A stretch of DNA of 41,459 nt from Gammaproteobacteria bacterium (GTDB taxonomy: Bacteria; Pseudomonadota; Gammaproteobacteria; Steroidobacterales; JABDKV01): the NCBI GenBank assembly GCA_013002045.1, contig JABDKV010000058.1, positions 1 through 41,459 of the forward strand, written 5' to 3'. Shown here in pieces: positions 2,816 through 19,688 of the stretch. Positions within the stretch are counted from its first letter, which is position 1. Every line of letters begins with the position of its first letter. The notes under the pieces are model-generated. The model did not search any database, was not told the origin of the DNA, and saw only the letters and a program-made list of their open reading frames with translations. Both the position numbers and the translations under genes were made by a program.

Positions 2816-4582
2816 GTGGAAACTAACGAAAACAGTTTAAAAGATTATTTGGCCGTTCTGCGTCGTCGCAAGGGGCTGATGATAATTACTTTCTTTTCGT
2901 TGCTGGTGATCTCGATCATCGCGGCATTCCTGTGGCCACCGACCTATCGTTCGACGGCAACGATTCTGATTCGTGACCAGGAGATTCCGCGTGACCTGGT
3001 GCCATCGACCATTACCAGCTTTGCTGACCAGCGCCTTATGGAAATTCAGGCGCGAGTGGTGACCTCGGCCAACCTGATCAAGCTGATCGAAGACTTTGAT
3101 CTGTATCCGGACCTGCGTCGACGCCTGCCGGCGACCGAGGTCGTCGATGAAATGCGCGACGACTATTCGCTCGACCTGGTTAGTGCCGACGTGATCGATC
3201 CACGCACCGGGCGACCCACTCAGGCGACGATTCTTTTCACGTTGTCGTTTGATTACGAGACGCCCGCTATCGCGCAGCAGGTAGCCAATCGTCTCGTCGA
3301 CCTGTATCTCGCAGAGAACCTGCGTGATCGAACCGAGCGTGCGCAGGAAACCACCAGCTTCCTGACTGAGCAGGCGGAAAAGCTGGCCCGCGAAATCGGT
3401 ACGCTGGAGGAGCGCATGTCGCGCTTCAAACAGCAGAATGCAGGTGCACTGCCAGAGCTCTATTCCATTAACCTGCAGATGATGGATCGCACCGAGGCTG
3501 AACTGCGCGAGATACAGCGCCAGATCCGGGTCAACAACGAGGCCCTGATCTACCTGCAGTCGGAACTGGCAACCACACCGAAGGCGGCGCCTATATATAG
3601 TCGCGAGGGCACGGTATTGCCACCCGATCAGCAACTGTCGGCGCTGCAATCGCAATACGCCACCCTTAGCGCCAGCTACGGACCCAATCACCCCGATGTG
3701 GCCTCGATAAGACGTCAGATCGAAGCGCTGAAAGGCGAGGTCGGTGAGGTCACCGATATCGGCGCCCTCGAGACGCAGATGCAGACGGTGCTGGTGGAAC
3801 TGGAAGGCTATCGGGATCGTTATGGTCCGGAACATCCTGACGTGCGCCGACTCGACCGCCAGTATGAGCGCCTGACCGCTGAACGTGATGCGGCGCTGGA
3901 AGCGCAGGTAGCCGGGTCTGATAGTGGTGGCGGATCCGTTGATTCCGGAAATTCGGTGTCGAATCCGAGTTACGTTGCTCTTTCAGCGCGGTTGGCTGCA
4001 GCGCAAGCGGAACAACGCGCCTTGCAGATACGCCAGCAGCAGCTGGCGGACAAGATGGCCAATTACGAAACCCGACTGGTAGCGGCGCCGGAAGTCGAAC
4101 GGGAGTTTAGCGAAATTATCCGTGACCTCGATAATGCCCGCGCCAAGTACCAGGAGATTCGCTCCAAGCAGCTGGCAGCCGAAGTTTCAGAAAGCCTCGA
4201 GCAGGGTCGTAAGGGTGAGCGCTTTGAAGTCGTTGACCCGGCGATGTTACCAACGCTGCCGCATACCCCGAACCGGCTGGCCCTGTTATTCCTGGGCCTG
4301 GTCCTGTCGATGGCCGGCTCGATCGGTACTACTGCGGTATCGGAAAGTATGGATAGCTCAGTGCACAGCCCCAATGCGCTGGCGAAGCTGACCGGGATTG
4401 CGCCGATTGCGACCATCCCAATGATCGAAAATGAGATCGATGTACGGCAAAAACGTCGCCGCATGTGGATGATTATCGGTGGGGTGAGCGCGGCTGTGCT
4501 GATAACCGCCTTGCTCGTCAATTTCCTCTATAAACCGCTCGATGTGTTGTGGTTTATTCTCCTCCGTAAGCTCGGTATCTGA
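2816..4582 (+). CDS. Polysaccharide chain-length determinant (Wzz/GumC-like, PEP-CTERM-locus EpsF-like)
   Basis: N-terminal TM (LMIITFFSLLVISIIAAFLW) followed by PPTYRSTATILI, a long coiled-coil periplasmic region and C-terminal TM helices. GTG start preceded by GAGGT. Confidence 0.85.
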   Translation: METNENSLKDYLAVLRRRKGLMIITFFSLLVISIIAAFLWPPTYRSTATILIRDQEIPRDLVPSTITSFADQRLMEIQARVVTSANLIKLIEDFDLYPDLRRRLPATEVVDEMRDDYSLDLVSADVIDPRTGRPTQATILFTLSFDYETPAIAQQVANRLVDLYLAENLRDRTERAQETTSFLTEQAEKLAREIGTLEERMSRFKQQNAGALPELYSINLQMMDRTEAELREIQRQIRVNNEALIYLQSELATTPKAAPIYSREGTVLPPDQQLSALQSQYATLSASYGPNHPDVASIRRQIEALKGEVGEVTDIGALETQMQTVLVELEGYRDRYGPEHPDVRRLDRQYERLTAERDAALEAQVAGSDSGGGSVDSGNSVSNPSYVALSARLAAAQAEQRALQIRQQQLADKMANYETRLVAAPEVEREFSEIIRDLDNARAKYQEIRSKQLAAEVSESLEQGRKGERFEVVDPAMLPTLPHTPNRLALLFLGLVLSMAGSIGTTAVSESMDSSVHSPNALAKLTGIAPIATIPMIENEIDVRQKRRRMWMIIGGVSAAVLITALLVNFLYKPLDVLWFILLRKLGI

Positions 4583-4608: not shown

Positions 4609-5427
4609 ATGGAACGAATCAAGGAAGCCCTCGACCGGGCGCGGCAACAACGCGAAGCCGACAATCATGCGGCTCCGGCCAAAGCAGCGCCCGAGGTTGG
4701 CAGGCCCGCCTCATCCGGGCTCGATATCGCGTACACCAGGACACGTGTGCTGACACCCGACCCGGTGGTCATGCGTGATTCGAAGCTGATCGGCTTCGGG
4801 CAAAGCGGCGATGTAGTGACTGACGCCTACCGCATGCTGCGTACCCGCACATTGCGGGCGATGGACGACAATGGCTGGCACTCGCTGGCCGTAACCAGTC
4901 CATGTCCGGGCGAGGGTAAGAGTCTCACTGCAATCAATCTCGCCATGAGCATGGCGCGGGAGATCAATCGCACCGTGTTGCTGGTCGACCTGGACTTGCG
5001 TCGACCCAGCGTGCACAAGTTTTTTGGTTTCGACATCGAGCACGGCATCAGTGAATACCTCACCGAAGATGTGGCGCTGGAAGATGTGCTGATCAATCCT
5101 GCGGTCGAGCGCTTTGTCATCCTCCCCGGGAGTGGCAGGGTGCAAAACTCATCCGAGTTGCTGAATTCACCTCGCATGCGGGCGCTGGCCAGTGAACTGG
5201 CGCAGCGCTATCCGGAACGCATCGTGATTTATGACCTGCCGCCGGTATTGGCGGTCGATGACGCCCTGGCCTTCTCGTCGCTGGTCGATGCCTTCATGCT
5301 GGTCGTCGAAGAGGGTTCGACACAGGCAGAGGACATCGTTGCAGCACATGACGTGTTATCGCAGGCCAATATTGTCGGCACGGTGCTGAACAAGGCGGCT
5401 GAATCCCAGGGTCACTACTACTACTGA
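4609..5427 (+). CDS. BY-kinase-type protein-tyrosine kinase / chain-length co-determinant (EpsG-like)
   Basis: Walker A SPCPGEGKS, Walker A' VLLVDLDLRRP, Walker B IVIYDLPP. The C-terminus ends GHYYY. Confidence 0.85.
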   Translation: MERIKEALDRARQQREADNHAAPAKAAPEVGRPASSGLDIAYTRTRVLTPDPVVMRDSKLIGFGQSGDVVTDAYRMLRTRTLRAMDDNGWHSLAVTSPCPGEGKSLTAINLAMSMAREINRTVLLVDLDLRRPSVHKFFGFDIEHGISEYLTEDVALEDVLINPAVERFVILPGSGRVQNSSELLNSPRMRALASELAQRYPERIVIYDLPPVLAVDDALAFSSLVDAFMLVVEEGSTQAEDIVAAHDVLSQANIVGTVLNKAAESQGHYYY

Positions 5428-5439
5428 CGAAGGCCGACG

Positions 5440-6306
5440 ATGTACGAGTCCTTTTACGGATTTGAGGAAAAACCATTTTCCCTGTTGCCCGACCCGGCAT
5501 TTCTGTACCTGGGTCGTAAACATCGTATGGCGTTGACCATGTTGCAGTACGGCCTGATGAATAATGCCGGATTCACCGTTATCACTGGCGAAATCGGCTC
5601 AGGCAAAACGACACTGATCCGCCAGCTACTCGACGAGATCGAGGCCGATGTGACCGTCGGCCTGATCACCAACACCCACGAGTCCTTCGGTGACCTGTTG
5701 CAGTGGGTATTGATGGCTTACGGTCTTGAGTACAAGGGTAAGGAAAAAGTCGAGCTCTACGAGACTTTTGTTGAGTTCGTTGTCAACGAGTACGCCGAGG
5801 GTCGGCGGGCTGTGCTGATAATCGACGAGGCACAGAACCTGTCACCGAAAACGCTCGAAGAACTGCGCATGTTGTCCAACGTCAACGCTGACAAGAACCA
5901 GGTTTTACAGATGATCATGGTGGGGCAGCCTGAGCTCCGTACGATGTTGATGTTGCCGAGTCTGAAGCAGTTCGCGCAGCGGGTGTCCGTCAGTCATCAC
6001 CTGGATCCGCTCAACTCCGAAGAAACGGTCAAGTACATTCACCATCGCGTATCGGTCGCTGGTGGCGATCCGGCGGTTTTTCCGCCAAAGAGTTGCTCGT
6101 TGATCTGGTATTACAGTCGCGGCGTGCCTCGCGTGATCAACTCACTTTGCGATACCGCGCTGGTTTACGGATTCGCCGAGCAGCGCAAGGAAATCGAGCC
6201 GGAGTTGATCAAGGATGTGGTCCGCGATCGCAAGGCTGGGGGTCTTTTCCCCACTCGCGAGGACGAACCACCGGTGCAACCGACCGGGACAGACGACGGG
6301 GCCTGA
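5440..6306 (+). CDS. ExeA-like AAA+ ATPase (PEP-CTERM-locus putative secretion ATPase)
   Basis: FGFEEKPFSLLPDPAFLYLGRKH N-terminal signature, Walker A GEIGSGKT, Walker B VLIIDEAQ, GVPRVINSLCD. Confidence 0.85.
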   Translation: MYESFYGFEEKPFSLLPDPAFLYLGRKHRMALTMLQYGLMNNAGFTVITGEIGSGKTTLIRQLLDEIEADVTVGLITNTHESFGDLLQWVLMAYGLEYKGKEKVELYETFVEFVVNEYAEGRRAVLIIDEAQNLSPKTLEELRMLSNVNADKNQVLQMIMVGQPELRTMLMLPSLKQFAQRVSVSHHLDPLNSEETVKYIHHRVSVAGGDPAVFPPKSCSLIWYYSRGVPRVINSLCDTALVYGFAEQRKEIEPELIKDVVRDRKAGGLFPTREDEPPVQPTGTDDGA

Positions 6307-6380: not shown

Positions 6381-8810
6381 ATGTTGAATATGCGTAATGT
6401 CCTGATACTGCTGGCTGCACTGGTGACTGTCGCCTGCAGCGGCCCCGAGCAGAGGGCAGACAAGTACATGGCCAAGGCGAATGCCTCGTTCGAGGCGGGT
6501 GATTTCGTCAAGGCTGAACTCGATGCCAAGAATACGCTGCAGATCGAGCCACAGAACGCCGATGCCCGTATGTTGCTGGCAAAAATCGCCGAGCAGGAAC
6601 TGCTGACGAACCCGGATAAGTGGCGCGAGATGATGGCGCAGTTGCAGCGTGTGGTCGAACTGGACCCGCAGAATGTTGAGGCGCGCATCAAACTGGCACA
6701 GCTGTATATGCGCTTTATCGCCAACGCGTCGGACAAGCAGCAGATCTTTGACATGATCCGTGACCAGGTCGAGTCGGCCAAGGCAGTCAAGCCTGACGAC
6801 AGCACAGTGCAGACTCTTGAGACCATGCTGGCTTATCACGAGGCCAACGATGCCGGTGACAGTGAAGCAGTCGCAGCGGCGATTGCCCGCGCTGACGCTT
6901 TATTCGATGAGGACCCAACCAACCTGCTGGCGACCAGCTTCCTCGCAGGCTACTACGCCGCTAGCGATAAAGACCTGGCAGTCAGCTATATCGACAGGTC
7001 ACTCGAAGTTGACAAGCAGCCGGCCCTGCGCGTGTTGAAAATCGGCTTGATGCAGGCAGGTGACGATCTGGCCGGCGCCGAACAGGAATACAAGAAGCTG
7101 ATCGAGGAGAATCCGGAGAACGACGAGGTCAAGTACGGGCTGGTGCGCTTCTATGCCGAGAGCGGCCAGGCGGAGAAGGCCGAGTCCATGCTGCGGGACC
7201 TGGTAGCCGCGGACGATGACAACGCCGAAGCCAAGCTGCAGCTGGCTCGTTTCAAGGCGCGCAGTGGTGATGTCGACGGTGCGGAGCAAATACTGCGAGC
7301 GGCCATGGAAGCCCACCCGGACAATTACGACTTTCCGTTCACGTTGTCACAATTGCATTTGCAGCAGGAACGCCAGGAGGCTGCCGAAGAATTGCTGAAC
7401 GAGATCAGCGAAAGCGCAGGCGCCACCGATGACGGCCTCAAGGCGCGTAACCAAATGGCACGGATACGGCTCTCGCAGGAACGCAAGGCCGATGCCGAGG
7501 CTATTATCGACACCGTTCTCGAAGACGAGGCTGCCAACTCCAGCGCGCTGCTCATGAAAGCGGCACTGCAACTCGAACGCTCGGAAACCGACAGCGCCAT
7601 TGCCAACCTGCGGACAGCGTTGCGCAATGATCCGACGTCAGAGCAGGCATTGACGCTGCTGGCGCGCGCGCAGATTGTGGCAAACGACTATGACCTGGCC
7701 AAGGTGACCTACCAGCGACTGGTTGCCGCGCACCCCAACAATGCGGCCGCCCGTCGGGAGCTGGCGCGACTGATGTCACGCGAACGGCAATGGGACGAAT
7801 TACGCAACCTGTTGGTCGACGGTATTGCACGTCATCCCGATGACGTACAGATGACGCGGATGCTGGTGGATACCCTGATCCGGGTCAATGACTGGGATAC
7901 GGCCCAGGTACAGGCTGACCGGATTGTCGATAAAGAGGAAACGCGTCCGCTGGGACTGTACCTGCAAGGTCGCATCCACCAGGCTCGCGGCCGCTACCAG
8001 CAGTCGATCGACGCCTTCAAGCAGGCACTCGAGTTGCAGCCGCGGGCAATCGAACCGTTAACCAACCTCGTGCGTAGCTACGTCGCGATGGACGACCTCG
8101 ACCAGGCTGCGGCCGATATTGAAGAGTTCCTGGCCAATAATGACAACCACGTTCACGCCCAGACCTTATTGGCCGAGGTATATGCCCGCCAGCAGCGTTG
8201 GAGCGATGCGATTGCGGCCAACGATACGGCGCTCAACATCGATGCACGCTGGGTACCGGCTTATCGCAACCTGATTGGATTGCACTTGCTGCGTGGCGAT
8301 TTCAACGAGGCGGAAAAGGCCGCGAATGGCGCGCTCGAGGTTTTGCCCGAGAACGCTGACCTGCGAATGCTGCTGGCGACGGTCTACGAACGCCAGGAGC
8401 GCTTTGACGAGGCCATCGAGATTTATGCAGAGGAGATTCGTCGCAACCCCGATTCGGAGATTGCAATAAACAACTTCGCCGCACTGGTTTCCGACCATAC
8501 TTCCGATCCGGCCAGGCTGGGGCGTGCTTTGCAACTGGCGCAGCGTTTTCGCAACGCCGACAATCCAGTGTTCCTCGATACGCTGGGATGGTTGATGTAT
8601 CGCAATGGCCAGTTCGACGATGCGGTGAAGGTGCTGGAGCAGGCTGTTGATGGCGCGCCCGGCGAGCCGCAACTGCGTTACCACCTCGGAATGGCCTATT
8701 ACGCCGTCGACCGGCTTGAGGGCGCGAAAAGCGAGCTGCAGGCCGCTGTCGCCGCCGATCGTGCCTTCGTCGGCCTCGAGGAAGCGCGCCAGACCCTGGA
8801 ACTACTGTAG
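6381..8810 (+). CDS. Large TPR-repeat lipoprotein (PrsT-like, PEP-CTERM system)
   Basis: Start at ATG 6381 (GAGG at 6371-6374). Lipobox LVTVAC. About 800 aa of tandem TPR-like repeats. The upstream part of track ORF 6093-8810 overlaps the ATPase gene and is rejected. Confidence 0.8.
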   Translation: MLNMRNVLILLAALVTVACSGPEQRADKYMAKANASFEAGDFVKAELDAKNTLQIEPQNADARMLLAKIAEQELLTNPDKWREMMAQLQRVVELDPQNVEARIKLAQLYMRFIANASDKQQIFDMIRDQVESAKAVKPDDSTVQTLETMLAYHEANDAGDSEAVAAAIARADALFDEDPTNLLATSFLAGYYAASDKDLAVSYIDRSLEVDKQPALRVLKIGLMQAGDDLAGAEQEYKKLIEENPENDEVKYGLVRFYAESGQAEKAESMLRDLVAADDDNAEAKLQLARFKARSGDVDGAEQILRAAMEAHPDNYDFPFTLSQLHLQQERQEAAEELLNEISESAGATDDGLKARNQMARIRLSQERKADAEAIIDTVLEDEAANSSALLMKAALQLERSETDSAIANLRTALRNDPTSEQALTLLARAQIVANDYDLAKVTYQRLVAAHPNNAAARRELARLMSRERQWDELRNLLVDGIARHPDDVQMTRMLVDTLIRVNDWDTAQVQADRIVDKEETRPLGLYLQGRIHQARGRYQQSIDAFKQALELQPRAIEPLTNLVRSYVAMDDLDQAAADIEEFLANNDNHVHAQTLLAEVYARQQRWSDAIAANDTALNIDARWVPAYRNLIGLHLLRGDFNEAEKAANGALEVLPENADLRMLLATVYERQERFDEAIEIYAEEIRRNPDSEIAINNFAALVSDHTSDPARLGRALQLAQRFRNADNPVFLDTLGWLMYRNGQFDDAVKVLEQAVDGAPGEPQLRYHLGMAYYAVDRLEGAKSELQAAVAADRAFVGLEEARQTLELL

Positions 8811-9170: not shown

Positions 9171-9186
9171 TGGCACGATTATTGGA
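9171..9186 (+). promoter_or_regulatory. Candidate sigma-54 promoter upstream of the cohesin-like gene
   Basis: TGGCACGATTATTGGA: the -24 half is perfect (TGGCACG), the -12 half is TTGG instead of TTGC, and the spacing is correct. It lies in an AT-rich 380-nt intergenic region. Confidence 0.35.
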
Positions 9187-9330: not shown

Positions 9331-9927
9331 ATGATCAAGAAAATTATCGGTAGCGTCGCATTGCTCGTGCTGGCGGCTGGCGCCAACGCGAACACCGTGA
9401 GCCTGGAGGGCCCGGCACTACCAGTCACGGGTGGCGACACCTTCGACGTCAATGTAATTGGTGAATTCGGCGCCACCGGAATGGGTGCGGGCGGTTTTCA
9501 GCTGTTCTGGGACAACGCAGTGCTGTCGCTGGACAATTATGTGTCCGCGATCAATCTCGACGATCAGCTGTCATGCCCAAGCGATAACCAGCCGAACTGC
9601 CCCAATGATCCGGACGGCACGTTCTCAAATGTATTCGGAAATTTCAATGGGTTGATCGCACCGGACGCTGGCCCCACGCTGATCGGAACGTTTACGTTTA
9701 CCGTGATCGCGGCTGCCTCTTCAGGTGCAGGTTCAACCTCTACCGCACTGACCATGGCCGACTTTACGCCATTCACCGGTGGCTGGTTCAACAATGGGTT
9801 ATCAGAGCCGATTACCAGTCCTGACCTGATCGGTACCACGATCGAAATTCAGCCGATCCCGCTGCCTGCAGCAGTATGGCTGATGGTTGGTGGCCTGGCA
9901 GCGCTGGCGCGCTTCCGCCGCAGCTAA
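9331..9927 (+). CDS. Secreted cohesin-like domain protein with VPLPA/PEP-CTERM-type C-terminal sorting signal
   Basis: Signal peptide MIKKIIGSVALLVLAAGANA. An all-beta body with a cohesin-like pattern (VSLEGPALPVTGGDTFDVNV, GFQLFWDNAVLSL, LIGTFTFTVIAAASSGAGST). Tail IPLPAAVWLMVGGLAALARFRRS. AGGGAG Shine-Dalgarno. Confidence 0.8.
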   Translation: MIKKIIGSVALLVLAAGANANTVSLEGPALPVTGGDTFDVNVIGEFGATGMGAGGFQLFWDNAVLSLDNYVSAINLDDQLSCPSDNQPNCPNDPDGTFSNVFGNFNGLIAPDAGPTLIGTFTFTVIAAASSGAGSTSTALTMADFTPFTGGWFNNGLSEPITSPDLIGTTIEIQPIPLPAAVWLMVGGLAALARFRRS

Positions 9928-9952
9928 GAATTAACCGTAACCGGTTACGAAG

Positions 9953-9984
9953 AAACCCCGCCTCAAGGCGGGGTTTTTTTGTTT
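9953..9984 (+). terminator. Rho-independent terminator
   Basis: AAACCCCGCC-TCAA-GGCGGGGTTT followed by a T-run (TTTTTTTGTTT). Confidence 0.85.
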
Positions 9985-10149
9985 CAGACGGTGAAACCGG
10001 CGGCGCATGCAGGTAAGGTAGAGCGAGCGTGGCCCGGAAACTGGGCAAGTTTTCGAAATCACCATAGAATGTGATTCGGATCCGTAGCGCAAACAAAATA
10101 ACTATGACGCGACGCTCCGGGTTGTTGGGGGATAATTGAGGTGCGATTT

Positions 10150-13100
10150 GTGAAAAGCAAAATGCTGGTTGCTGCGGCGTCCGCGGCAGTAATGCTGGTT
10201 GCCGGTCTTTCGGCCAATGCAACGTTTTCGATTGGCTGGTTGGCGCAGGGGCTGAATCTGGCCGCCACTACCGGCCAGGGATCCGACCCGACGTCCGTGC
10301 GTGTGCGCACTGCGGACAAGAGTAATGGGTTTCGATGGGAAAAGGGATTAGCGGGCCGGCATCGGTATATCGTGCGCCTCGACGATGACCCACTGGCCAG
10401 CTATCGCGGCGGTATAGATGGGCTGACTGCGACCAATCCCGATACGCTGCGTGCCGGCGCCCGGGCGGCCGCAAAAGTCGCTGCGGCGGGAGGTGATGTA
10501 CGGCTGGACGTAGATAGCGCCGCCAGTCGGGCTTACCTCGACTACCTTGCACGCCAACAAACCAAGGTCGAACAACGCCTGAGTCGCGAAGTAGGCAAGC
10601 TCAATGTCATCTACCGTTATCGTCATGCCTTCAATGGCCTGACGGTGGAAATGACCCAGGAGCAGGCGGCCATCGCGGCTACACTGCCGGGCGTTGCCAC
10701 TGTGCAACGCGACTTCCTGCGCAAGATCAATACCGCCACGTCCGTTGACTGGATCGGGGCAGGTGCCGTCTGGGATGGCAGTGCGACCGGGCTGCAGGCC
10801 CGCGGCGAGGGTGTCATCGTCGGTATCATCGATACCGGGATCAATACCGATCACCCATCGTTTGCAGCAACGAGCCCGGGTGATGGCTACGCCCACGTCA
10901 ACCCGCTGGGGTCCGGCAACTACCTGCGTGATTGCGCGCCATTCGATCCGAACACCAATCCTAACGGCGGTCGCGCCGCGCTGTGCAATGACAAAGTCAT
11001 TGGCACCATGGCTCTGCCGTTATCGGCCGAGAGCGTAGGCCAGGAAGATGCCGAAGACTGGAATGGTCACGGCTCGCATACTGCCGGCACGGCTGCCGGC
11101 AACCTGGTGCTCGACGTGCCGTTTCTGAATTTCGAGGGTAATCCCACGGGTATCGTATTCGACAAGATCACCGGTGTGGCACCGCGTGCAAATGTCTCGG
11201 CCTATATGGCGTGCGGTGAGGGCGGTTGCCCCGGATCGGACCTGGTCGCGGCTATTGACGCCGCAACGGCCGACGGTGTCCATGTGATCAACTATTCAAT
11301 CGGCGGTGGACCAATTGACCCGTGGAATGATGCCGACAGCCTCGCTTTTCTCGGTTCCCGGGATGCCGGAATCTTTGTTGCAACCTCGGCGAGCAACGAT
11401 GGCCCCGATCCAGGAACGGTCGGTTCACCGGCCGTGTCGCCGTGGTTGACCTCCGTTGCTGCCAACTCTCACCAGCGTGCCTGGTCAGAAAAATATGTTG
11501 CCGACATGAGTGGCGGCGATACGCCCCCACCGGCGGATCTCCCCGGTCGTAGCGCGACCGGTGGTTTCGGACCGGCGCCGATTATTTACGCCGGTGACTA
11601 TGGCGATCCGCTGTGCGCCCTCAATGCTTTCGCACCGGGTACTTTTGCGGGCGAGATCGTGGTTTGCGACCGCGGTGGCTTTGCCCTTGTAGATAAGGCT
11701 GCCTCGGCGGCCGCAGGTGGTGCCGGAGCGGTTGTTATCGCCAGCACCGCGTCGTCGGCGCAGGGCCTGTTCGATCTTCCGTATGCCATTCCCGGTATCC
11801 AGATCAACCAGGAGCACGGCGACCTGTTACGGGCGTGGCTGGCGAGTGGCAGTGGGCATGTAGCGACAATCACCGGTGCAATCCCCGAAATCAATCCCGA
11901 TGCAGCCGATATTGTGGCGGCATTCAGTGGTCGGGGCCCAAATGCGTCCGTGCCTGACATCATTAGCCCGAACCTGTCAGCACCCGGTGTCAATGTTTAT
12001 GCCGCTGTGCAGTCGCCTACGGAATACGGACAGCTCAGCGGTACATCGATGTCCGGACCCCATGTAGCCGGCGCGGCGGCGTTGCTGCGTCAGTTGCATC
12101 CGGGTTGGACTGCGGCTGAAATCCATACTGCGCTGGCCACCACGGGGGTGCGTGATCTGCGAACCGAGGAAGATTTTCCCGAGATCGGTACACCGTTTGA
12201 CTATGGTGGCGGGACTATACGTGTCGACGCGGCTGCCCGTGCCGGGCTGTTGATGCATGAGACCACAGCCAACTTCCAGGCGGCTAATCCGGGCCTCGGT
12301 GGTGACCCGACGACACTGAACCTGCCGAGTTTTGGCAATAGCCAGTGTCTCGAAGTATGCACCTGGGAACGCACCGTCAAAGCGACAGCCGCTGCAACAT
12401 GGACCGTCAGCGCCGACAGTGACAGCGGCGTAACAATCAACGCGAGTCCGCAGACTTTCTCGTTGACAGAAGGCGAAACGCAGGTGATCACTGTAACAGC
12501 CGATGTCACCGGACAGCCGTTCGGTGAATGGCTGTTTGGCTGGGTGCACCTGACACCGGATAACGTCGCAGTGTCGCCGCAGGCATTGCCCGTTGCGGTC
12601 GCACCGACGGCCGGCATATTGCCGGAGCTGCTCGAGATTACTGCACATCGCGATGCCGGATCGCAGTTGATTGGCGGCTTCGAAACCGGCTCATTGAGTA
12701 ATGTCATCATCGATGCATATGGCTTATCGGCGCCAGTCGAGACCATTGTAGAGACCGAGGGTGACAACGGTGGCGTGTTCTCGCCTTACACCGAGACCGG
12801 TGTTGATATCTCGTTTTACGATGTACCAGCAGGCTCGGTTATTTTCTCTGCCAGTACAGCAAACAGCACGGCACCCGACATCGATCTGTTCGTCGGCCGT
12901 GACAACAACGGCGATGGCATGATTACGGCTGACGAGGAGTTGTGCCAGAGCGGCGGACCCGTCTCCATCGAACGCTGCGACCTTACCGGCGCAGACGTGC
13001 AGCAGGGCGGTAGCTTCTGGGTGGCAGTGGTGGCGTTCGAAGCCAGTGCGCCCAATGCAATCGATACGACGGAGCTGACCGTGGCGACCGCCGCACCGAG

Positions 13101-14586
13101 CACGGGCAATTTCTCAATTGAGGCGCCGTCGTTCGCTACCCCGGGTGAGGCCTGGAACATTCGCGCCTTCTGGGATGAATCGATGTCGGCGGGTGACATG
13201 ATGTTTGGCGCTGTCGAGGTGTTTGGCAACGGCGAATCGCTGGCGCTTATCCCGGTCGAGTTACGCCGCGGTGAGGACGATGTGCGCATCACCGCGTCAG
13301 ATACTATCGTCGACGCCAATCAGCCCATCACCATGACTGTTGAAGTCGAGACCAACCTGTCTCCCGAAGACCTGTTCTATGTCATCGATGCCGACATACC
13401 GGATGGTTTTGAATATGTGCCAGGCTCCGCTGATGTCAGCGAGGGTAATGTGTACGTGATCAACAACCAGTTGATCTGGATTCTGCCGCACCCGACGCTG
13501 GCGTTTGAACCGAATTTCTACGAAACCCACCTGAATGGCCCGGGTGTGGATCCCACCGATCCGCATTACAACCCGGCCTGCGACACCGGCTTTGGTGGTT
13601 ATGTCGATCTGGAGAGTTTTGGTATCGATGCGAACCCGACGATTTCGGGCGACACGATCTCGTACTTCACGCTCGAAGGTCAAAACCTGCCGTTTTACGA
13701 CAAACCGAAGACGGCTTTCACGATCACCGACGATGGTTTTGGCGTGTTTGCCTCGGGTGTAGGCAATACGCCGTGGCAGAACACCGGTATACCCAACGAT
13801 GCAGAACCCAACGATATGGTTGCAATCGCCTGGACCGATACTGAGATCGTCTATGACGCAGCGACCAACAGTGGCGTAACCATTGCGGCGCCGGGACCGA
13901 ACCTGAGTGTTGTCGAGTTCGACGACATGCAGCGTTATCCGGCCGGATCCAGCAGCGACCGGATCGACTACCAGGTCGTGTTCAACGGCGCTATCGATGA
14001 TGGTGCCAACAAGTTTGAACTGGTGCTGGCGTACGACAATATTGTCGGTGACTGGAGCGACGTAACGGTCGGTGTCGAGAACCAGGCCGGTGATGCCGGT
14101 TCGCAATACGGCGGTGCGCTTAGCGATGGCCTGATGATCTGCTATGACTATGTCGGACCGGACCTGAGCGCCGAAACGATGACTTACCAGATTCAGGCTG
14201 TGGATGCTTCAGGCGATATCGCACATGAGCTGTTTAGTATCGTCAATATGCCGGGAAGTCGTGAAAGCTCGACCAGCATCATGCTGACGGTGACGGCAGA
14301 CACTGATGCAGACGGTGTCGGTGACAACATCGATAATTGTACTGCGGTGGCAAACCCGGACCAGGTCGACGTTGACCAGGACGGTTTCGGCAACGCCTGC
14401 GATCCTGACTTCAACCAGGATGGACGAGTCGATTTCTGGGACCTGATGATGATGAAGTCGATGTACCAGACAGCTGATCCGCTGGGTGACCTGACCGGTG
14501 ACGGCTGGGTCGATGTCGCCGACCTCAATGTTATGCGTAGCCTGTTCTTCGGCCTTCCAGGTCCAAGCGCCGCTGGGCAGCAATAA
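10150..14586 (+). CDS. Giant secreted S8 subtilisin-family protease with I9 propeptide, PA insert, PPC-like domain, TSP3 repeats and dockerin-like C-terminus
   Basis: Catalytic motifs VGIIDTGI (Asp), NGHGSHTAGTAAG (His), SGTSMSGPHVAG (Ser). PA-like insert GEIVVCDRGGFALVDKA. DIDLFVGRDNNGDG. Tail DTDADGVGDNIDNC...DQDGFGNACD + DFNQDGRVDFWDL + DLTGDGWVDVADL. Start ambiguous: GTG 10141, GTG 10150 (GAGGTG 6 nt upstream) or ATG 10162. Confidence 0.9.
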   Translation: MKSKMLVAAASAAVMLVAGLSANATFSIGWLAQGLNLAATTGQGSDPTSVRVRTADKSNGFRWEKGLAGRHRYIVRLDDDPLASYRGGIDGLTATNPDTLRAGARAAAKVAAAGGDVRLDVDSAASRAYLDYLARQQTKVEQRLSREVGKLNVIYRYRHAFNGLTVEMTQEQAAIAATLPGVATVQRDFLRKINTATSVDWIGAGAVWDGSATGLQARGEGVIVGIIDTGINTDHPSFAATSPGDGYAHVNPLGSGNYLRDCAPFDPNTNPNGGRAALCNDKVIGTMALPLSAESVGQEDAEDWNGHGSHTAGTAAGNLVLDVPFLNFEGNPTGIVFDKITGVAPRANVSAYMACGEGGCPGSDLVAAIDAATADGVHVINYSIGGGPIDPWNDADSLAFLGSRDAGIFVATSASNDGPDPGTVGSPAVSPWLTSVAANSHQRAWSEKYVADMSGGDTPPPADLPGRSATGGFGPAPIIYAGDYGDPLCALNAFAPGTFAGEIVVCDRGGFALVDKAASAAAGGAGAVVIASTASSAQGLFDLPYAIPGIQINQEHGDLLRAWLASGSGHVATITGAIPEINPDAADIVAAFSGRGPNASVPDIISPNLSAPGVNVYAAVQSPTEYGQLSGTSMSGPHVAGAAALLRQLHPGWTAAEIHTALATTGVRDLRTEEDFPEIGTPFDYGGGTIRVDAAARAGLLMHETTANFQAANPGLGGDPTTLNLPSFGNSQCLEVCTWERTVKATAAATWTVSADSDSGVTINASPQTFSLTEGETQVITVTADVTGQPFGEWLFGWVHLTPDNVAVSPQALPVAVAPTAGILPELLEITAHRDAGSQLIGGFETGSLSNVIIDAYGLSAPVETIVETEGDNGGVFSPYTETGVDISFYDVPAGSVIFSASTANSTAPDIDLFVGRDNNGDGMITADEELCQSGGPVSIERCDLTGADVQQGGSFWVAVVAFEASAPNAIDTTELTVATAAPSTGNFSIEAPSFATPGEAWNIRAFWDESMSAGDMMFGAVEVFGNGESLALIPVELRRGEDDVRITASDTIVDANQPITMTVEVETNLSPEDLFYVIDADIPDGFEYVPGSADVSEGNVYVINNQLIWILPHPTLAFEPNFYETHLNGPGVDPTDPHYNPACDTGFGGYVDLESFGIDANPTISGDTISYFTLEGQNLPFYDKPKTAFTITDDGFGVFASGVGNTPWQNTGIPNDAEPNDMVAIAWTDTEIVYDAATNSGVTIAAPGPNLSVVEFDDMQRYPAGSSSDRIDYQVVFNGAIDDGANKFELVLAYDNIVGDWSDVTVGVENQAGDAGSQYGGALSDGLMICYDYVGPDLSAETMTYQIQAVDASGDIAHELFSIVNMPGSRESSTSIMLTVTADTDADGVGDNIDNCTAVANPDQVDVDQDGFGNACDPDFNQDGRVDFWDLMMMKSMYQTADPLGDLTGDGWVDVADLNVMRSLFFGLPGPSAAGQQ

Positions 14587-14595
14587 AGAAAACCT

Positions 14596-14628
14596 GCCCC
14601 GGGTCTGTGAGACGCGCGGACCCGGGGC
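14596..14628 (+). other. GC-rich intergenic stem-loop between the two protease genes
   Basis: GCCCCGGGTC (14596-14605) pairs with GACCCGGGGC (14619-14628). No T-run follows (AATAACAAAAC), so it is not a classical intrinsic terminator. Confidence 0.5.
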
Positions 14629-14679
14629 AATAACAAAACAGACCTCCGCTCGCAGCAGCCAGTGGAAGGAGGCAGGGTA

Positions 14680-17514
14680 ATGAGAGCAAGTACCTGGATT
14701 TTTTGCCTGATCGCGGTTGTGGCCGCGAGCGCCCACGCAGAGGTTCGCACCACAGTGCTGCCAAAGCTCGATCGTCAGCAACTGCTGACCGAGGATGCTG
14801 CCGCGCCGGCCGGGCAACCACTGCGTGTTGCAATCGACTACCCGATCGGAACAAAAACGCCCGAACGCCTTGCACGGCAGGCCGATGGGGGTTACCGCTG
14901 GAGCCAGCGGTATCACGTACCCGGTGCCACCGAGCTAAGCCTGGGCTTTGGAGACTTCTGGTTGCCTGACGGTATCAGTGTGCGGGTCTACGACGAGCAG
15001 CGACGCACGATGCGTGGTCCCTACACGTCAGCAGACAATAAACCTCATCGTGAACTGTGGGTGCCTGTTGTGCCCGGCGACACGATGATCGTGGAAATCA
15101 GCGCCAACAAGCCGAAAGGCCAGCCAGTCGAGTTGCAGGCGCCAGCATTGAAGATTATCCAGGTCAATGCCGGTTATCGTGACCTGTTCGGCCTCGAGGG
15201 CAAGCCCGACCTGACACGCGGTGGCCCGGCACCGTGCAATATCGATGTAGTGTGCCCGCAGGCCGACAACTGGCGCGATGAGCTACGTGCCGTGGCCCGC
15301 TATACCATTGTGCTGGGCGGCGGTACCTTCCTGTGTACCGGACAGCTCATTGCCGACGAACCTCGGTCGCTAAATAACCTGTTCCTGACGGCGGATCATT
15401 GCGGACCATCACCGTCGAGCGACCAGACCATGATTTTCTACTGGAATTTCGAATCACCAGCTTGTGGCCAGCTCGGCGGCGGGTCGCTGAGCCAGGCACA
15501 ATCGGGCGCAATTTTTCGTGCCTCCCGTCAGAACGTCGATTTCAGCCTGGTCGAACTGGAAGATGAGCCGTTGCAGGACTGGAATGTCTACTACATCGGC
15601 TGGGATCGGAGCTTCGGTAATATCCCGGGCCTGACTGTCGGGATCCATCATCCCGGCGGTAATGAAAAAATGATCAGCCTCAATACCAACGGCACATTGT
15701 CGCAACAGGTTTGTATTGCAGGAACCAACGATCCCAACGGTTTTATCTTCCTCAGCTGGGAGCAGGGTATTACCGAGCCTGGTTCGTCTGGTTCGGGCCT
15801 GTTTCGAGGGGACAACAAGAAACTGGTCGGTGTCTTGAGTGGCGGTACACAAGGCGCAAATTGTTCCAACGTCGGCTTCGACTGCTACGGACGTTTCGCC
15901 AGCGCCTGGGACGGCAGCACTGCCTCGACCCGGTTGCGGGACTGGCTCGATCCCAACGGCACCGACGCCGTCATGGTCGATGGTTTCGACCCCAATGTCG
16001 GTATCTGTGGCGATGCCGTCGTTGTCGGCGCTGAGAATTGTGACGATGGTAATGTGCAGTCCGGTGACGGCTGCTCAGCGAGTTGCCAGGTAGAAGCCGG
16101 CTTCGCCTGCACGTTGCCGGTGAGCACGGCTGGACTGCGTGATGGCAGCTTCGAAGGCGGTACCCCGAATCCGGACTGGCATGAGTTCTCCATGAATAAC
16201 GACGAGATACTGTGCACCGGGCCCGGATGTAGCGGCGGGTTGGCCGAGGATGGCTCGTGGTTTGCCTGGTTTGGTCGTGCCAGCAATGAGGCCGAAGTCG
16301 GGTTTCTCGAGCAGACATTAATCATCCCGGTCGACGCGACGACTTTTGCTATGCAGGTGGTGGCGCCAATCTGTGACAGCGCCAATGACCTGCTACGGGT
16401 GACGATAGATGACAGCCCGATCATTCAGATCGATGGTGACGATCTGGATTTCTGCCCCACATTTGCCTATGTGCCGGTCAGTGGCGACGTGACGCCCTTC
16501 GCGGATGGCGGTGTGCACGTGCTGCGCATCGAGGCGCAGCAACACCTGCAGGGTGGGTCGAGTACGGATTTCTTCATCGACTCGCTGGCCCTTGACGGCA
16601 GTACTGGCGGTGACGGCACCCCCAGTATTTGTACGCCCTTACCTGAGACCTGTTTTGCAGACGATTTCAGTGCTGGTCTGGGAAACTGGACGACTTTTGC
16701 GACCGGCGCCAATCCGGCAGGCTGGGGCATTACTAACGATGGTACCTGCAACAGTAATCCTGCCACCCCAGACGGTAACTTCACCAGTGGCAGTGGCGAC
16801 GCCGCCTGTGTTGACGCCGACGCCGCCGGACCCGGGGTGATAGATGCTTATCTGTGCGGACCGTCACTGAACTTTGGCACTATTGTCGATCCACGACTGG
16901 TTTTTGATTACAGCTACCAGATCGACGGTGTGCCCGACAGCGACGACCTGTTGGCCGTGCTCGTCGGCAATGCACCTCCCGGTGCCGCGACCATCGGCGG
17001 TTACACTGCTGTGTGGGACCGCACAATAGATGCCGGTGCCGAATTCAATGTGCCGGGCTTCGATGCAGATTTGCCGCTCGACAGCTTCACCGGCCAATCG
17101 GTGCACGTGTGTTTCCGATACCGCGCCGACGATGACTGGTATGCACAAATCGACAACGTCGCGGTGCGCGCCAGCCAATGCGAATCCGCAATAGATACCG
17201 ACAATGATGGTATTGCCGACCCGCTGGATAACTGTGTGCTGCTTGCCAACGCAGGCCAGGCTGACAGTGACGGCGACAATATCGGCAATGCCTGCGATGC
17301 CGACCTCGCACCACAACCCAACGACTGTATCGTGAACTTTGCCGATCTGAATGCGCTGAAGAATGCGTTTTTCTCAAATCCGCAATCACCGTCGTGGAAT
17401 GCCGATGCGGACTTCAATGACGATCAGCAGGTCAATTTCATCGACCTCAATATCATGAAGCAGGGTTTTTTCGGGGCGCCCGGGCCAAGTGGATTGCCGA
17501 ACGACTGTAGCTGA
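14680..17514 (+). CDS. Secreted S1 (lysyl-endopeptidase/Achromobacter protease I-like) serine protease with Cys-rich repeat, two jelly-roll-like domains, TSP3 repeats and dockerin-like C-terminus
   Basis: AGGAGG 7 nt before ATG 14680. Signal peptide MRASTWIFCLIAVVAASAHA. LTADHCG (His), NVDFSLVELE (Asp), TEPGSSGSGLF (Ser), RLRDWLDP as in Lys-C. CGDAVVVGAENCDDGNVQSGDGCSASC Cys-rich repeat. Tail DTDNDGIADPLDNC...DSDGDNIGNACD + two dockerin-like segments. Confidence 0.88.
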   Translation: MRASTWIFCLIAVVAASAHAEVRTTVLPKLDRQQLLTEDAAAPAGQPLRVAIDYPIGTKTPERLARQADGGYRWSQRYHVPGATELSLGFGDFWLPDGISVRVYDEQRRTMRGPYTSADNKPHRELWVPVVPGDTMIVEISANKPKGQPVELQAPALKIIQVNAGYRDLFGLEGKPDLTRGGPAPCNIDVVCPQADNWRDELRAVARYTIVLGGGTFLCTGQLIADEPRSLNNLFLTADHCGPSPSSDQTMIFYWNFESPACGQLGGGSLSQAQSGAIFRASRQNVDFSLVELEDEPLQDWNVYYIGWDRSFGNIPGLTVGIHHPGGNEKMISLNTNGTLSQQVCIAGTNDPNGFIFLSWEQGITEPGSSGSGLFRGDNKKLVGVLSGGTQGANCSNVGFDCYGRFASAWDGSTASTRLRDWLDPNGTDAVMVDGFDPNVGICGDAVVVGAENCDDGNVQSGDGCSASCQVEAGFACTLPVSTAGLRDGSFEGGTPNPDWHEFSMNNDEILCTGPGCSGGLAEDGSWFAWFGRASNEAEVGFLEQTLIIPVDATTFAMQVVAPICDSANDLLRVTIDDSPIIQIDGDDLDFCPTFAYVPVSGDVTPFADGGVHVLRIEAQQHLQGGSSTDFFIDSLALDGSTGGDGTPSICTPLPETCFADDFSAGLGNWTTFATGANPAGWGITNDGTCNSNPATPDGNFTSGSGDAACVDADAAGPGVIDAYLCGPSLNFGTIVDPRLVFDYSYQIDGVPDSDDLLAVLVGNAPPGAATIGGYTAVWDRTIDAGAEFNVPGFDADLPLDSFTGQSVHVCFRYRADDDWYAQIDNVAVRASQCESAIDTDNDGIADPLDNCVLLANAGQADSDGDNIGNACDADLAPQPNDCIVNFADLNALKNAFFSNPQSPSWNADADFNDDQQVNFIDLNIMKQGFFGAPGPSGLPNDCS

Positions 17515-17621
17515 CATGGATTTCTGAGCGGGAAATGAACTGGGGAAGGCAAGGATGCTGACATAATGAACCGCTGGCGTGACCTGTCCACCGCGACCGT
17601 ATAGCAAGCTAGAATAGGCTT

Positions 17622-19223
17622 ATGCACGGATCACTCGGTGTTTCCACGTCGGCCTTCCGCTCCCTGCCGGACCCGGCATTGCTGTACCTGTCTGACCAGC
17701 ACGCGCGCGCGCTGGCCTTCATCGACCTGTCGCTTCGCTATCCCGGATGTATGAGCGTGCTCATTGCCGAGCGCGGCTGCGGTAAGACCATCCTGGTCAG
17801 TACTGCGCTGGCCGCCGCCGTACGACCTGTCGAGGTGGTGCAACTCGATGCCGCCGGATTGACCGCCAGGGACATCCTGCAACAGGTACAGGCGCAATTA
17901 ATCAGCAGTGAGCCTGGCGATTCCGTCTTACCAGGATTGACGGCGGTCCGCGCGACACTCGCCAGGCGGGGTGATCTGGTCGTACTGGTTATCGACAATG
18001 CACATCGGATCGATGTGGCGCTATTCGAAACGATCAACGCCATGACGCGGGGCGATGACGGCGCCGGCCGACTCAGCCTGGTCCTGATCGGCGAGCCCGG
18101 GCTCGATGTGCTGGTGCATACCCTCGATCGCAGTCTGCTGGAAAACTGGACGACACTGGTGGCGCACGTTCACCCGCTGAATCTCCAGGATGTGCAGCAA
18201 TATGTCATGCAACGCTTACGGGCCGATGGCAGTGAGAACCCCGGAGAACTGGTTGCAGACGAGGTGTTTCCGCTTCTGCATAGTCTGAGCGAGGGCATAC
18301 CTGCCAGGATCAATGCGATCTGCGAGGTGGCTACCCGTCTCGCGCATGAATCGGGGGCTCGCATGATCGCGGTAGAGCATGTGCATGCAGCTGCGATCCA
18401 GCTTGGTGTCGGCGTCGCGGACGGTACCGAACTGGCGCTGGTGCACAACACCGCTGTACCGAGCCTCAGTATTGCGCGTGACGACGAAACGCTAAGAGTC
18501 CATCCACTCGACCAGGAAAGGACGATGATCGGTCGTGGCAGGGACAACGAGATCACCATCGATGCGCCGTACGTCAGTCGTCACCATGCACTGATCGTCC
18601 GCGATGAGCGCGGTTTCTGGCTATTCGATATGAATAGCACTAACGGCACCCTTGTTAATGGTCAGCGGGTATTACAGCGACAATATCTTTATCCCGGTGA
18701 TCAGATCCGTATCGGGCGACACCAGATGACTTTTTTTGGACCGCGACAGGAACGCGCCACCGGGGCTGCCGAATTGCGCGATGACCGAAGTCACGCACAG
18801 ACCATGGTTGATACCCATACCGGCGATGCACAGAGTGCCCTGGAGCAGATCGAGCTACGGCTGCAACACAATCCGGACCTGATAGAGCTGAAGTTCGAAC
18901 GTGGCTGCCTGCTGAGTGATCTTGGGCGAGCCGAGGATGCCATTGAGCAGTTCCGTGCAATTACCGAGAGCGACGAATCGACGGCCGAGGCTCATAACAA
19001 CCTTGCAGTCCTGTTTGCCAACAGCGGCGAGTTGCACCAGGCACGTGCCGAGCTTGAGCAGGCCCTGGTAATCGATCCCGACTACAATCGGGCTCGCGAG
19101 AACCTCGGCAATGTGCTGCTACACCTGGCACTGGAGCAATTCGACCTGGCGATGCTGCAACCGGTGGATCCGCAGTCATGCCAGATCAAACGCCTGACTC
19201 TGAGTCGATTGCTCGGGAGCTAG
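17622..19223 (+). CDS. ExeA-like AAA+ domain / FHA domain / TPR fusion protein
   Basis: The N-terminus FRSLPDPALLYLSDQHARAL parallels the ATPase at 5440. Walker A ERGCGKT, Walker B VLVIDNAH. FHA motifs GRGRDNEITI...SRHHALI...STNGTLVNG. C-terminal TPR (AEAHNNLAVLFANSGELHQA...ALVIDPDY). Confidence 0.8.
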   Translation: MHGSLGVSTSAFRSLPDPALLYLSDQHARALAFIDLSLRYPGCMSVLIAERGCGKTILVSTALAAAVRPVEVVQLDAAGLTARDILQQVQAQLISSEPGDSVLPGLTAVRATLARRGDLVVLVIDNAHRIDVALFETINAMTRGDDGAGRLSLVLIGEPGLDVLVHTLDRSLLENWTTLVAHVHPLNLQDVQQYVMQRLRADGSENPGELVADEVFPLLHSLSEGIPARINAICEVATRLAHESGARMIAVEHVHAAAIQLGVGVADGTELALVHNTAVPSLSIARDDETLRVHPLDQERTMIGRGRDNEITIDAPYVSRHHALIVRDERGFWLFDMNSTNGTLVNGQRVLQRQYLYPGDQIRIGRHQMTFFGPRQERATGAAELRDDRSHAQTMVDTHTGDAQSALEQIELRLQHNPDLIELKFERGCLLSDLGRAEDAIEQFRAITESDESTAEAHNNLAVLFANSGELHQARAELEQALVIDPDYNRARENLGNVLLHLALEQFDLAMLQPVDPQSCQIKRLTLSRLLGS

Positions 19224-19388
19224 GCCGGTTGCTTTCATCGTCAAGCCATGGACGCTATAGGAAAAATTAGATAAATCAGTAATATATAGTGTTTTTATCA
19301 ATTGTCTCTAAGGATCGAAATCTGTTGATCCCAGGTTTCGTCATGGCGGCACCTTGAATCCCTGCATGCGACCCCCGATATTGCCTAC

Positions 19389-19688
19389 ATGAATTACCAT
19401 CGTTTGCCGTCGCCTCAGCCCTCACTGCTCCAGCGCGCCATTGCCGCGGTGGTCGGTGCGGTGGTGCTGGCTGGCCTGTTCATCGTTGGCGTGTTCGCCT
19501 CAGTGGTGCTGGCCGGCGCCGCACTGGTAGGTGGGATAGCGCTGTCAATCTGGGTCTGGCGGCAACGCCGCCAGTTTGAGAGATTCAGGGCTGCGCACGA
19601 AGAAAAGCTGCGTCAGGCCATGGGTGAAGCTGGTGACAGCGATGCAATCGAAGGTGAGTTTGTCGTGCGCGAACGGCGCAAACACTAA
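19389..19688 (+). CDS. Small two-TM membrane protein, hypothetical
   Basis: Two hydrophobic helices (AIAAVVGAVVLAGLFIVGVFASVVLAGAALVGGIALSIWVW) and a charged tail. No recognisable family. Confidence 0.5.
   Translation: MNYHRLPSPQPSLLQRAIAAVVGAVVLAGLFIVGVFASVVLAGAALVGGIALSIWVWRQRRQFERFRAAHEEKLRQAMGEAGDSDAIEGEFVVRERRKH

Follow-up and report, generated by a model that had tools for sequence, protein, structure and literature searches.

A putative ExeA-like pseudo-ATPase joined to FHA and TPR domains at the end of a gammaproteobacterial XrtA/PEP-CTERM gene cluster

ExeA-type ATPases accompany type II secretion, MSHA pili and PEP-CTERM polysaccharide loci, and their regulation is poorly understood. 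A 41,459-nucleotide stretch of gammaproteobacterial DNA (contig JABDKV010000058.1 of assembly GCA_013002045.1; the whole of this stretch is referred to as the window) raises the question of what might be done by a gene, at 17622–19223 on the forward strand, in which an ExeA-like module, an FHA domain and TPRs are joined in one polypeptide at the end of an XrtA/PEP-CTERM cluster. The open reading frame (ORF) was confirmed; it begins with ATG and specifies 533 residues. Its product is predicted to be a soluble cytoplasmic protein of three parts, that is, a catalytically degenerate ATPase-like module, an FHA domain and three TPRs. We consider it moderately likely that this is an AAA+ adaptor which would bind nucleotide without hydrolyzing it, be recruited through its FHA domain in a phosphorylation-dependent manner, and possibly play a role in envelope or polysaccharide functions.

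Hidden Markov model and structure searches recovered each of the parts named in the original prediction. The protein was found to possess the Pfam motifs AAA_22 [PF13401; residues 45–162, E 2.5e-14, 54.2 bits against a cutoff of 27], FHA [PF00498; residues 302–365, E 7.3e-21, 74.8 bits against a cutoff of 20.7] and several TPR families between residues 400 and 500. Its top NCBIfam match is TIGR03015, the XrtA/PEP-CTERM-associated ATPase [residues 7–255, E 3.1e-26]. Since membership in that family calls for at least 324.5 bits and a single-domain protein of about 270–290 residues, this 533-residue product, which scores 92.4 bits and carries two extra domains, falls outside it. An AlphaFold model (mean predicted local distance difference test score, pLDDT, 72) displays folded domains at residues 18–261, 281–372 and 403–532, with low-confidence or disordered linkers at 264–278 and 375–401. 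There is no signal peptide or transmembrane segment, and no hydrophobic segment rises above a KD19 value of 1.55.

A search of 5.8 billion proteins returned only six full-length orthologs (533–536 residues, 46–62% identical), all from uncultured Gammaproteobacteria. By segment, the mean pairwise identity within this family is 0.80 for the N-terminal motif, 0.69 for the FHA domain, 0.58 for the TPRs, 0.56 for the AAA core and 0.27 for the linker. Judging from these values the AAA+ domain is under purifying selection, most of all in its N-terminal signature. Because that signature is the best conserved segment of the protein, and because 37 of the 145 core residues are invariant, the ATPase domain does not appear to be decaying.

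The signature in question (FRSLPDPALLYLSDQHARALAF..., residues 8–40, nucleotides 17643–17741, forward strand) has 23 of its 33 residues invariant. In BLASTP alignments it pairs with FSLLPDPAFLYLGRKHRMAL of a distant homolog encoded in the same window, the canonical XrtA/PEP-CTERM-locus ExeA-like ATPase (5440–6306, forward strand; TIGR03015, 315 bits; DEAQ, QR and GVPR motifs intact). The two proteins are 26% identical over 241 collinear residues [E 4e-18], and every motif pair on which the original prediction had based its claim of ExeA-type homology was found aligned. The PF13401 match together with the pattern F-x-x-x-PDP-x-FLY-x-S-x-x-H assigns the protein to the ExeA-like AAA_22 superfamily. 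The AAA+ core and lid (residues 41–262, 17742–18407) have an initiator/MuB-like fold: the top Foldseek matches are Cdc6/Orc1, MuB, RuvB and TnsC, with the non-catalytic AAA+-like domain of Sir3 also listed, and by sequence the family profile is nearest to MuB [E 6e-8].

Within this fold the P-loop is retained. Walker A (A49-E-R-G-C-G-K55-T56, 17766–17789) conforms to GxxxxGK[ST], and C53, G54, K55 and T56 are invariant in all seven family members. The Walker B segment (V-L-V-I-D125-N126-A-H, 17982–18005) is degenerate; where the locus ATPase has LIIDEAQ, with the DEAQ of canonical ExeA-like proteins, the present protein reads L119-V-V-L-V-I-D125-N126-A-H-R, and the catalytic Glu of the hhhhDE consensus is missing. 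Across the seven family members the corresponding pair is DN, DN, EN, SN, SN, TS and SE, a drift which does not fit any catalytic role; the Walker B Asp is counted as lost in four of the seven.

For the remaining motifs a reference of known structure was required. The copy of PDB that was searched held no solved ExeA-type ATPase, and the MuB alignment ends before the Arg finger, so RuvB was used instead. Aligned through hhalign with the RuvB encoded in the same window (probability 95%), the ExeA-like domain places DEAQ opposite DEIH (Walker B), QR opposite R-D-R-F (Arg finger) and GVPR opposite GTPR (sensor 2), the roles of these RuvB motifs being established. The Arg-finger and sensor-2 positions given here are thus assigned by alignment to RuvB rather than from an ExeA structure. 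In a motif table covering 55 ExeA-like domains, the canonical members, FHA-fused or not, display GxxGxGK[TS], hhhhDEAQ, GQPEL, L-x-Q-R before beta5 and G[IV]P-R-x-IN. At the Arg-finger (box VII) position our protein has W176 (18147–18149), and so do all six orthologs. Its sensor-2 region (G225-I-P-A228-R229-I-N, 18294–18314) has the Arg displaced by one position; the family pattern is GIP-[AGV]-[RK]-[IL]N, so that the canonical Arg site is occupied by Ala, Gly or Val in seven of seven. As far as sequence can tell, Walker B, Arg finger and sensor 2 are lost together, with the P-loop kept, in all known orthologs, which points to the N-terminal domain being a nucleotide-binding pseudo-ATPase. The Asp-Asn Walker B had earlier been taken as the sign of a hydrolysis-impaired nucleotide binder, and that proposal gains strength from this family-wide pattern.

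The FHA domain (residues 281–372, 18462–18737) is, by contact residues, of the canonical type that had been predicted. Beta strands extend over residues 281–372 in the model. The phosphothreonine-contact residues R305, S319, R320, H321 and N341 are invariant in all orthologs, as are the signature elements G304-R305, S319-R-H-H322 and N341-G-T343, and the domain keeps every phosphothreonine-contact residue of characterized FHA domains. Its sequence matches in PDB include EmbR, FhaA (TB39.8), Rv1747 and GarA.

The C-terminal region (residues 403–533, 18828–19220) comprises three TPRs, a capping helix and a conserved ...SRLL tail, and is modeled as seven helices over residues 403–532. Its best sequence matches in PDB are consensus and OGT-type TPRs [E 1e-22 or lower].

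Where, then, did this combination of domains come from? The original prediction had viewed the gene as a paralog of two separate genes of the exopolysaccharide (EPS) core, the ATPase at 5440–6306 and the TPR lipoprotein PrsT at 6381–8810. This part of it did not hold. The TPR region scores only 34 bits against PrsT by BLASTP, and the protein as a whole 33.5 bits against TIGR02917, the PrsT family, for which the cutoff is 312; the TPR similarity is to all appearances generic. PrsT begins with a lipoprotein signal (MLNMRNVLILLAALVTVAC), as described for its family by Haft et al. 2006 (PMC1569441). Since our protein has no such signal, its TPRs and those of PrsT would be located in separate compartments. 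When residues 1–265, the ATPase domain, are compared by themselves, the best matches outside the orthologs are Steroidobacteraceae proteins composed of an ExeA-like ATPase and an FHA domain [104–110 bits, E ~1e-28], as against 71 bits for the locus ATPase and 70–79 bits for GspA-type proteins. Because of these scores the protein is best seen as a member of the ATPase–FHA family that presumably gained a cytoplasmic TPR arm, and origin by duplication or fusion of the neighboring ATPase and PrsT was rejected. In a neighbor-joining tree with 100 bootstraps the present family forms a long-branched clade (100% support) which falls within the FHA-fused group, where the deep nodes are weak (31/100 for that group).

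The full three-part architecture is rare. A pattern scan of one genome for each of 185,579 species gave three matches, and when 1.84 billion cluster representatives were searched with the family profile it was confined to a single cluster at 50% identity. In that same search at least 25 representative clusters, of about 400–465 residues, matched the profile without interruption from position 3 to about position 380; these are ExeA-like ATPase–FHA proteins without TPRs. A search with one Steroidobacteraceae member, P0118, gave E values below 1e-20 for 8000 of 8000 scored candidates and, as every candidate scored passed, at least 8000 is a lower bound. On these counts the ATPase–FHA fusion is common, and unstudied, and the TPR extension is its rare feature. 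A one-stretch collinear match over ATPase, linker and FHA domain makes our protein a member of the fusion family. The named members come from Steroidobacter, Peristeroidobacter and Povalibacter, and our literature searches found nothing on ExeA–FHA fusions.

Two ExeA-like ATPase–FHA families can be recognized in the Steroidobacteraceae, one P0118-like with intact motifs and one P0208-like with degenerate motifs. The P0118-like genes lie downstream of purE-purK (L012, L013; P0377, P0419) and the P0208-like genes upstream of thrA-thrB-thrC (L010, L011; P0316, P0286). As a clue to function this context was set aside as uninformative, the relatives without TPRs being stand-alone genes among housekeeping genes. 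Joint loss of Walker B, Arg finger and sensor 2 was also seen in six other FHA-fused proteins (P0208, P0229, P0222, P0197, P0173 and P0013), and this distribution of motifs shows that presumptive inactivation recurs within the ATPase–FHA family. A third architecture is represented by P0171, P0186, P0196 and P0013 (808–1197 residues), in which an ExeA-like ATPase is followed by a long coiled-coil-like region, some 500–900 residues rich in Glu, Leu and Ala, and a C-terminal FHA domain. Walker B of P0013 reads IIDNAH, like that of our protein.

The linker which follows the FHA domain (residues 373–402, 18738–18827; pLDDT below 50) displays a cross-subclade identity of only 0.16, and T394 (18801–18803) is the sole invariant residue among its 30. 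It lies in a T-x-x-D context in six of the seven sequences. An element akin to this site, [D/E]-T-x-[V/L], occurs in the post-FHA tail of several relatives without TPRs, and in 120 P0208-like proteins the FHA domain is followed by a tail motif, DPGETLCFARPGFP, with conservation of 90% or more at the majority of its positions. No motif of the DPGETLCFARPGFP type was seen in the P0118-like proteins. As a hypothesis only, and by analogy with GarA/OdhI, we suggest that T394 and DPGETLCFARPGFP may be sites of phosphorylation which the neighboring FHA domain would read in cis or in trans.

The surroundings of the gene provide a further set of clues. On the same strand, downstream of the ortholog, a small membrane protein gene was found in L001, L002, L003, L006, L014–L016 and the contig of P0002, and this is the only same-strand neighbor present in every orthologous locus. 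In the window it occupies 19389–19688 on the forward strand and specifies 99 residues (88–103 elsewhere). In this product a long hydrophobic segment, interpreted as two helices (KD19 maximum 2.8), is combined with a basic motif, W-R-x-R-R-R-F-E-K-F, and a tail of acidic character. Where DNA existed for comparison the homologs are 44–54% identical and share W-R-x-R-R-R. The protein belongs to no family, its only match being a weak one to DUF6232 [E 0.006]. In the spacer between the two genes (19224–19388) the richness in AT is striking (for example, AAAAATTAGATAAATCAGTAATATATAGTGTTTTTATCAATTG), given that the genome has about 58% GC; promoter-like hexamers were detected there on the minus strand only (19310–19281). 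Beyond the small membrane gene the recovered loci continue with convergent DUF427 and TrmH genes.

Upstream, as the original prediction had noted, the gene directly follows two protease genes, for an S8 subtilase (10141–14586) and a trypsin-like protease (14662–17514); the gap to the latter is 107 bp, and no terminator-like site was found in it. The two proteases end in homologous tails of about 90 residues (14299–14586 and 17230–17514, 41% identity), which match thrombospondin type-3 repeats and are dockerin-like; such tails are also carried by the orthologous proteases in L002, L003 and L006. In every locus seen the ortholog is co-directional with the EPS/protease block, and in four loci the gap to this block is 62–108 bp. 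No conserved upstream DNA motif was seen among the orthologous loci. That the gene should co-occur with the tail-bearing proteases was upheld in part. Both protease orthologs lie upstream in L002 and L006, the trypsin-like one stands at the contig edge in L003, and L016 has a fragment of a TSP_3-tailed gene in this position. L001 (the same contig as L004) possesses the complete EPS core, a 193-residue VPLPA-like gene and then the ortholog, without proteases, so that the link with them is not obligatory. In L001 the upstream gene is followed by a terminator-like hairpin and the gap before the ortholog is 248 bp. Comparison of L001 8612–9442 with window positions 9331–17622 reveals that a segment of about 7.4 kb with both proteases is absent, the flanking genes being collinear. 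Identities between the window and L001 are 90% for the locus ATPase, 65% for the chain-length determinant, 54% for PrsT and 46% for the protein considered here. The first of these values (5440–6306 against L001 5044–5910), set beside 40–70% for the other proteins of the locus, suggests an unusually strong constraint on the locus ATPase.

Based upon the above, we propose that the AAA+ module probably still binds nucleotide and cannot hydrolyze it, nucleotide occupancy setting the conformation of the protein rather than doing work. The FHA domain would dock the protein on a Thr-phosphorylated partner, the kinase being encoded elsewhere in the genome, and the TPRs and the dead AAA+ module would recruit further partners. 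These might include an active ExeA-type ATPase, with which the protein could co-assemble, accepting but not donating an Arg finger. By analogy with the autoinhibition of GarA/OdhI, T394 may serve as phospho-site for its own or a neighboring FHA domain. Because the gene is the last same-strand gene of the XrtA/PEP-CTERM cluster and always precedes the small membrane gene, the output may concern the envelope or exopolysaccharide export, involving the machinery encoded upstream and the small membrane protein encoded downstream.

A number of observations weigh against this proposal. Nucleotide binding, the lack of hydrolysis and phosphothreonine binding are all read from sequence, and the AlphaFold model was built upon an alignment of seven family sequences. 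Some FHA domains, that of YscD for example, function without phosphate. As had been stated before, the window contains no Ser/Thr kinase or phosphatase: neither a Hanks-type kinase nor a PP2C domain was detected by Pfam or NCBIfam in any of its major ORFs, and none was found in the related loci examined. The gene has no sigma-54-type promoter upstream like that of the VPLPA-CTERM gene described below. The putative link to polysaccharide export must be called weak; it consists of synteny in one narrow lineage, and since the same genomes share the flanking DUF427, TrmH, peroxiredoxin and GNAT genes in equal measure, it has no independent support. The nearest Steroidobacteraceae relatives without TPRs adjoin thrABC or purEK, not polysaccharide genes.

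Some of these same observations lead to another explanation, which we regard as possible, if clearly less probable than the one proposed. The protein may be a general phospho-signaling adaptor, unrelated to the polysaccharide/PEP-CTERM locus, whose partner would be the small membrane protein or the products of genes in other places, and its position would then be an accident of lineage-wide synteny. One would expect as much from the closest relatives without TPRs, which stand alone among housekeeping genes (P0316 and P0286 at thrABC; P0377 and P0419 at purEK), from the place of the gene where the EPS block gives way to convergent housekeeping genes, from the hairpin and 248-bp gap in L001, which imply that the ortholog there has its own promoter, and from the want of a sigma-54-like site upstream. 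It is harder to reconcile with the constant co-direction with the EPS/protease block, the short gaps in four loci and the failure to find a terminator-like site between the protease gene and our gene. Nor does it sit easily with what is known of characterized ExeA-type ATPases; GspA/ExeA act on envelope-spanning machines, and MshM is predicted to do likewise. A further notion is unlikely in our estimation: the protein might be a dead "capping" subunit co-assembling with the active 5440–6306 ATPase, bringing the export of polysaccharide or of PEP-CTERM proteins under the control of Ser/Thr phosphorylation, and the ATPase–FHA class at large, widespread and unstudied, would link Hanks-type kinases to envelope assembly machines. 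The assembly would then be turned on or off as the FHA domain binds either a phosphorylated partner or, in an autoinhibited state, pT394 of the same protein; the small two-helix membrane protein could be the membrane anchor, and active and inactivated ATPase–FHA paralogs might work in pairs.

It had also been suggested that the gene serves the secretion or surface display of the two tail-bearing proteases. The occurrence of both genes immediately upstream in the window, their orthologs in L002, L003 and L006, the TSP_3 fragment in L016, and the short intergenic gaps, in which no terminator was detected, are what a dedicated factor of this sort would lead one to expect, but L001 retains the ortholog and the small membrane gene without the proteases, the protein is cytoplasmic, and the proteases have signal peptides and would use general export routes; we think this improbable. 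A still smaller likelihood attaches to the protein being an active ATPase with non-canonical catalytic residues. The P-loop is intact, D125 is kept in our protein, and a basic residue, R229, lies one position after the canonical sensor-2 site. Against this, the two Walker B positions vary freely (D/E/S/T at the one, N/S/E at the other), the Arg-finger position is Trp throughout, and changes of the Walker B Glu to Gln or Asn abolish hydrolysis in AAA+ proteins. Finally, the layout of NTPase plus TPRs is common among STAND proteins, and a weak AAA_16 match [E 5.8e-4, below cutoff] might hint at a STAND-type or anti-phage sensor with the TPRs as sensor arm. With only three TPRs, no effector domain and an NTPase clearly of the ExeA/MuB AAA+ type, this can scarcely be credited; the best PADLOC match, LmuB [E 0.0068, 13 bits], is not meaningful, and the defense reading, having no PADLOC support, was disfavored.

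The remainder of the window can be described briefly. A tRNA-Ser(TGA) at 502–591 immediately precedes the polysaccharide cluster, the core of which comprises genes for an export protein (719–1597), a chain-length determinant (2816–4582), a tyrosine autokinase (BY-kinase; 4609–5427), the locus ATPase and PrsT (6381–8810). It also includes a 453-residue ORF (1434–2795) without Pfam or NCBIfam matches at E below 1e-5, which has a counterpart in the corresponding place of L001 (40% identity); as listed, it begins before the export-protein ORF has ended, and this leaves its true start uncertain. A genomic island received no support: apart from the tRNA gene, for which there is no tRNA at the equivalent place within the L001 DNA examined, the GC content is flat (0.55–0.62) across the window. 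Neither a GspB-like nor a secretin gene was found in the window.

After the core comes a VPLPA-CTERM protein gene (9331–9927), which is followed at once by a strong hairpin with a T-run, that is, a terminator (9940–9980). About 145 bp upstream of this gene lies a sigma-54-like site, TGGCACGATTATTGGA (9171–9186), with one mismatch to TGGCAC-N5-TTGCW; a sigma-54 motif has been reported upstream of PEP-CTERM genes (PMC1569441), and this site fits it. Over the whole window such matches number 28, against 23 ± 5 by chance, and are thus not above chance. Control of our gene by sigma-54 or PrsR was rejected, the only good site being that upstream of the VPLPA-CTERM gene. Beyond the small membrane gene there are convergent genes for DUF427, TrmH, peroxiredoxin, GNAT and M48 protease homologs, and further downstream sucAB-lpd, spoT/relA, ruvCAB, tol-pal and queCE.

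What emerges is a large ATPase–FHA family which, as far as our literature searches show, is without experimental study, and to which one small uncultured gammaproteobacterial lineage added a TPR arm, the gene there standing last in an XrtA/PEP-CTERM cluster. If the phospho-adaptor model that we prefer is true, the gene would be an entry point for studying how Ser/Thr kinases control the export of exopolysaccharides or exoproteins by Gram-negative bacteria; if the protein is only a general adaptor, the result is a modest refinement of annotation.

Among known systems the closest are the TPR-less ATPase–FHA fusions themselves. The P0118-like and P0208-like proteins, whose annotation goes no further than "AAA family ATPase" or "general secretion pathway protein A," are collinear with our protein over signature, AAA+ core, lid, linker and FHA domain. 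Unlike it they have no TPRs, and in most of them DEAQ, QR and PR are intact, so that activity may be presumed. P0208, P0229, P0222, P0197 and P0173 resemble it in the joint loss of Walker B, Arg finger and sensor 2, and the conserved Thr-containing motif in the post-FHA tail of the P0208-like proteins recalls its linker. The TIGR03015 ATPase of the same locus, encoded on the same strand of the same cluster, shares the ExeA-type AAA+ module and the signature, here F-x-x-x-PDP-x-FLYL, whereas our protein has lost the catalytic motifs, gained FHA and TPR domains and evolved much faster.

The ATPase domain of Aeromonas ExeA/GspA, likewise AAA_22, is homologous to that of our protein (P0034, P0036 and P0058, 70–79 bits). 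ExeA, which works with ExeB on secretin assembly, has in addition a transmembrane segment and a periplasmic peptidoglycan-binding domain (PF01471), the latter seen in P0034, P0036 and P0058, whereas our protein has neither and gave no match to PF01471. Its FHA domain directly matches those of the Ser/Thr-kinase-regulated adaptors GarA/OdhI, Mycobacterium FhaA/FhaB and Fha1/TagH of the type VI secretion system, none of which carries an AAA+ module or TPRs. In GarA/OdhI an autoinhibitory phospho-Thr adjoins the FHA domain, and the conserved Thr in the disordered segment beside the FHA domain of our protein recalls it, by analogy only. Lastly, the AAA+-like domain of Sir3, the clamp-loader delta-prime subunit and Orc4/Orc5 have an AAA+ fold with degraded motifs which is used for protein assembly, and Sir3 and origin recognition complex subunits are among the Foldseek matches of our protein. 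They are unrelated to it in sequence and biology, and the likeness would be one of principle only, an AAA+ fold kept for assembling proteins after its catalytic motifs have degraded.

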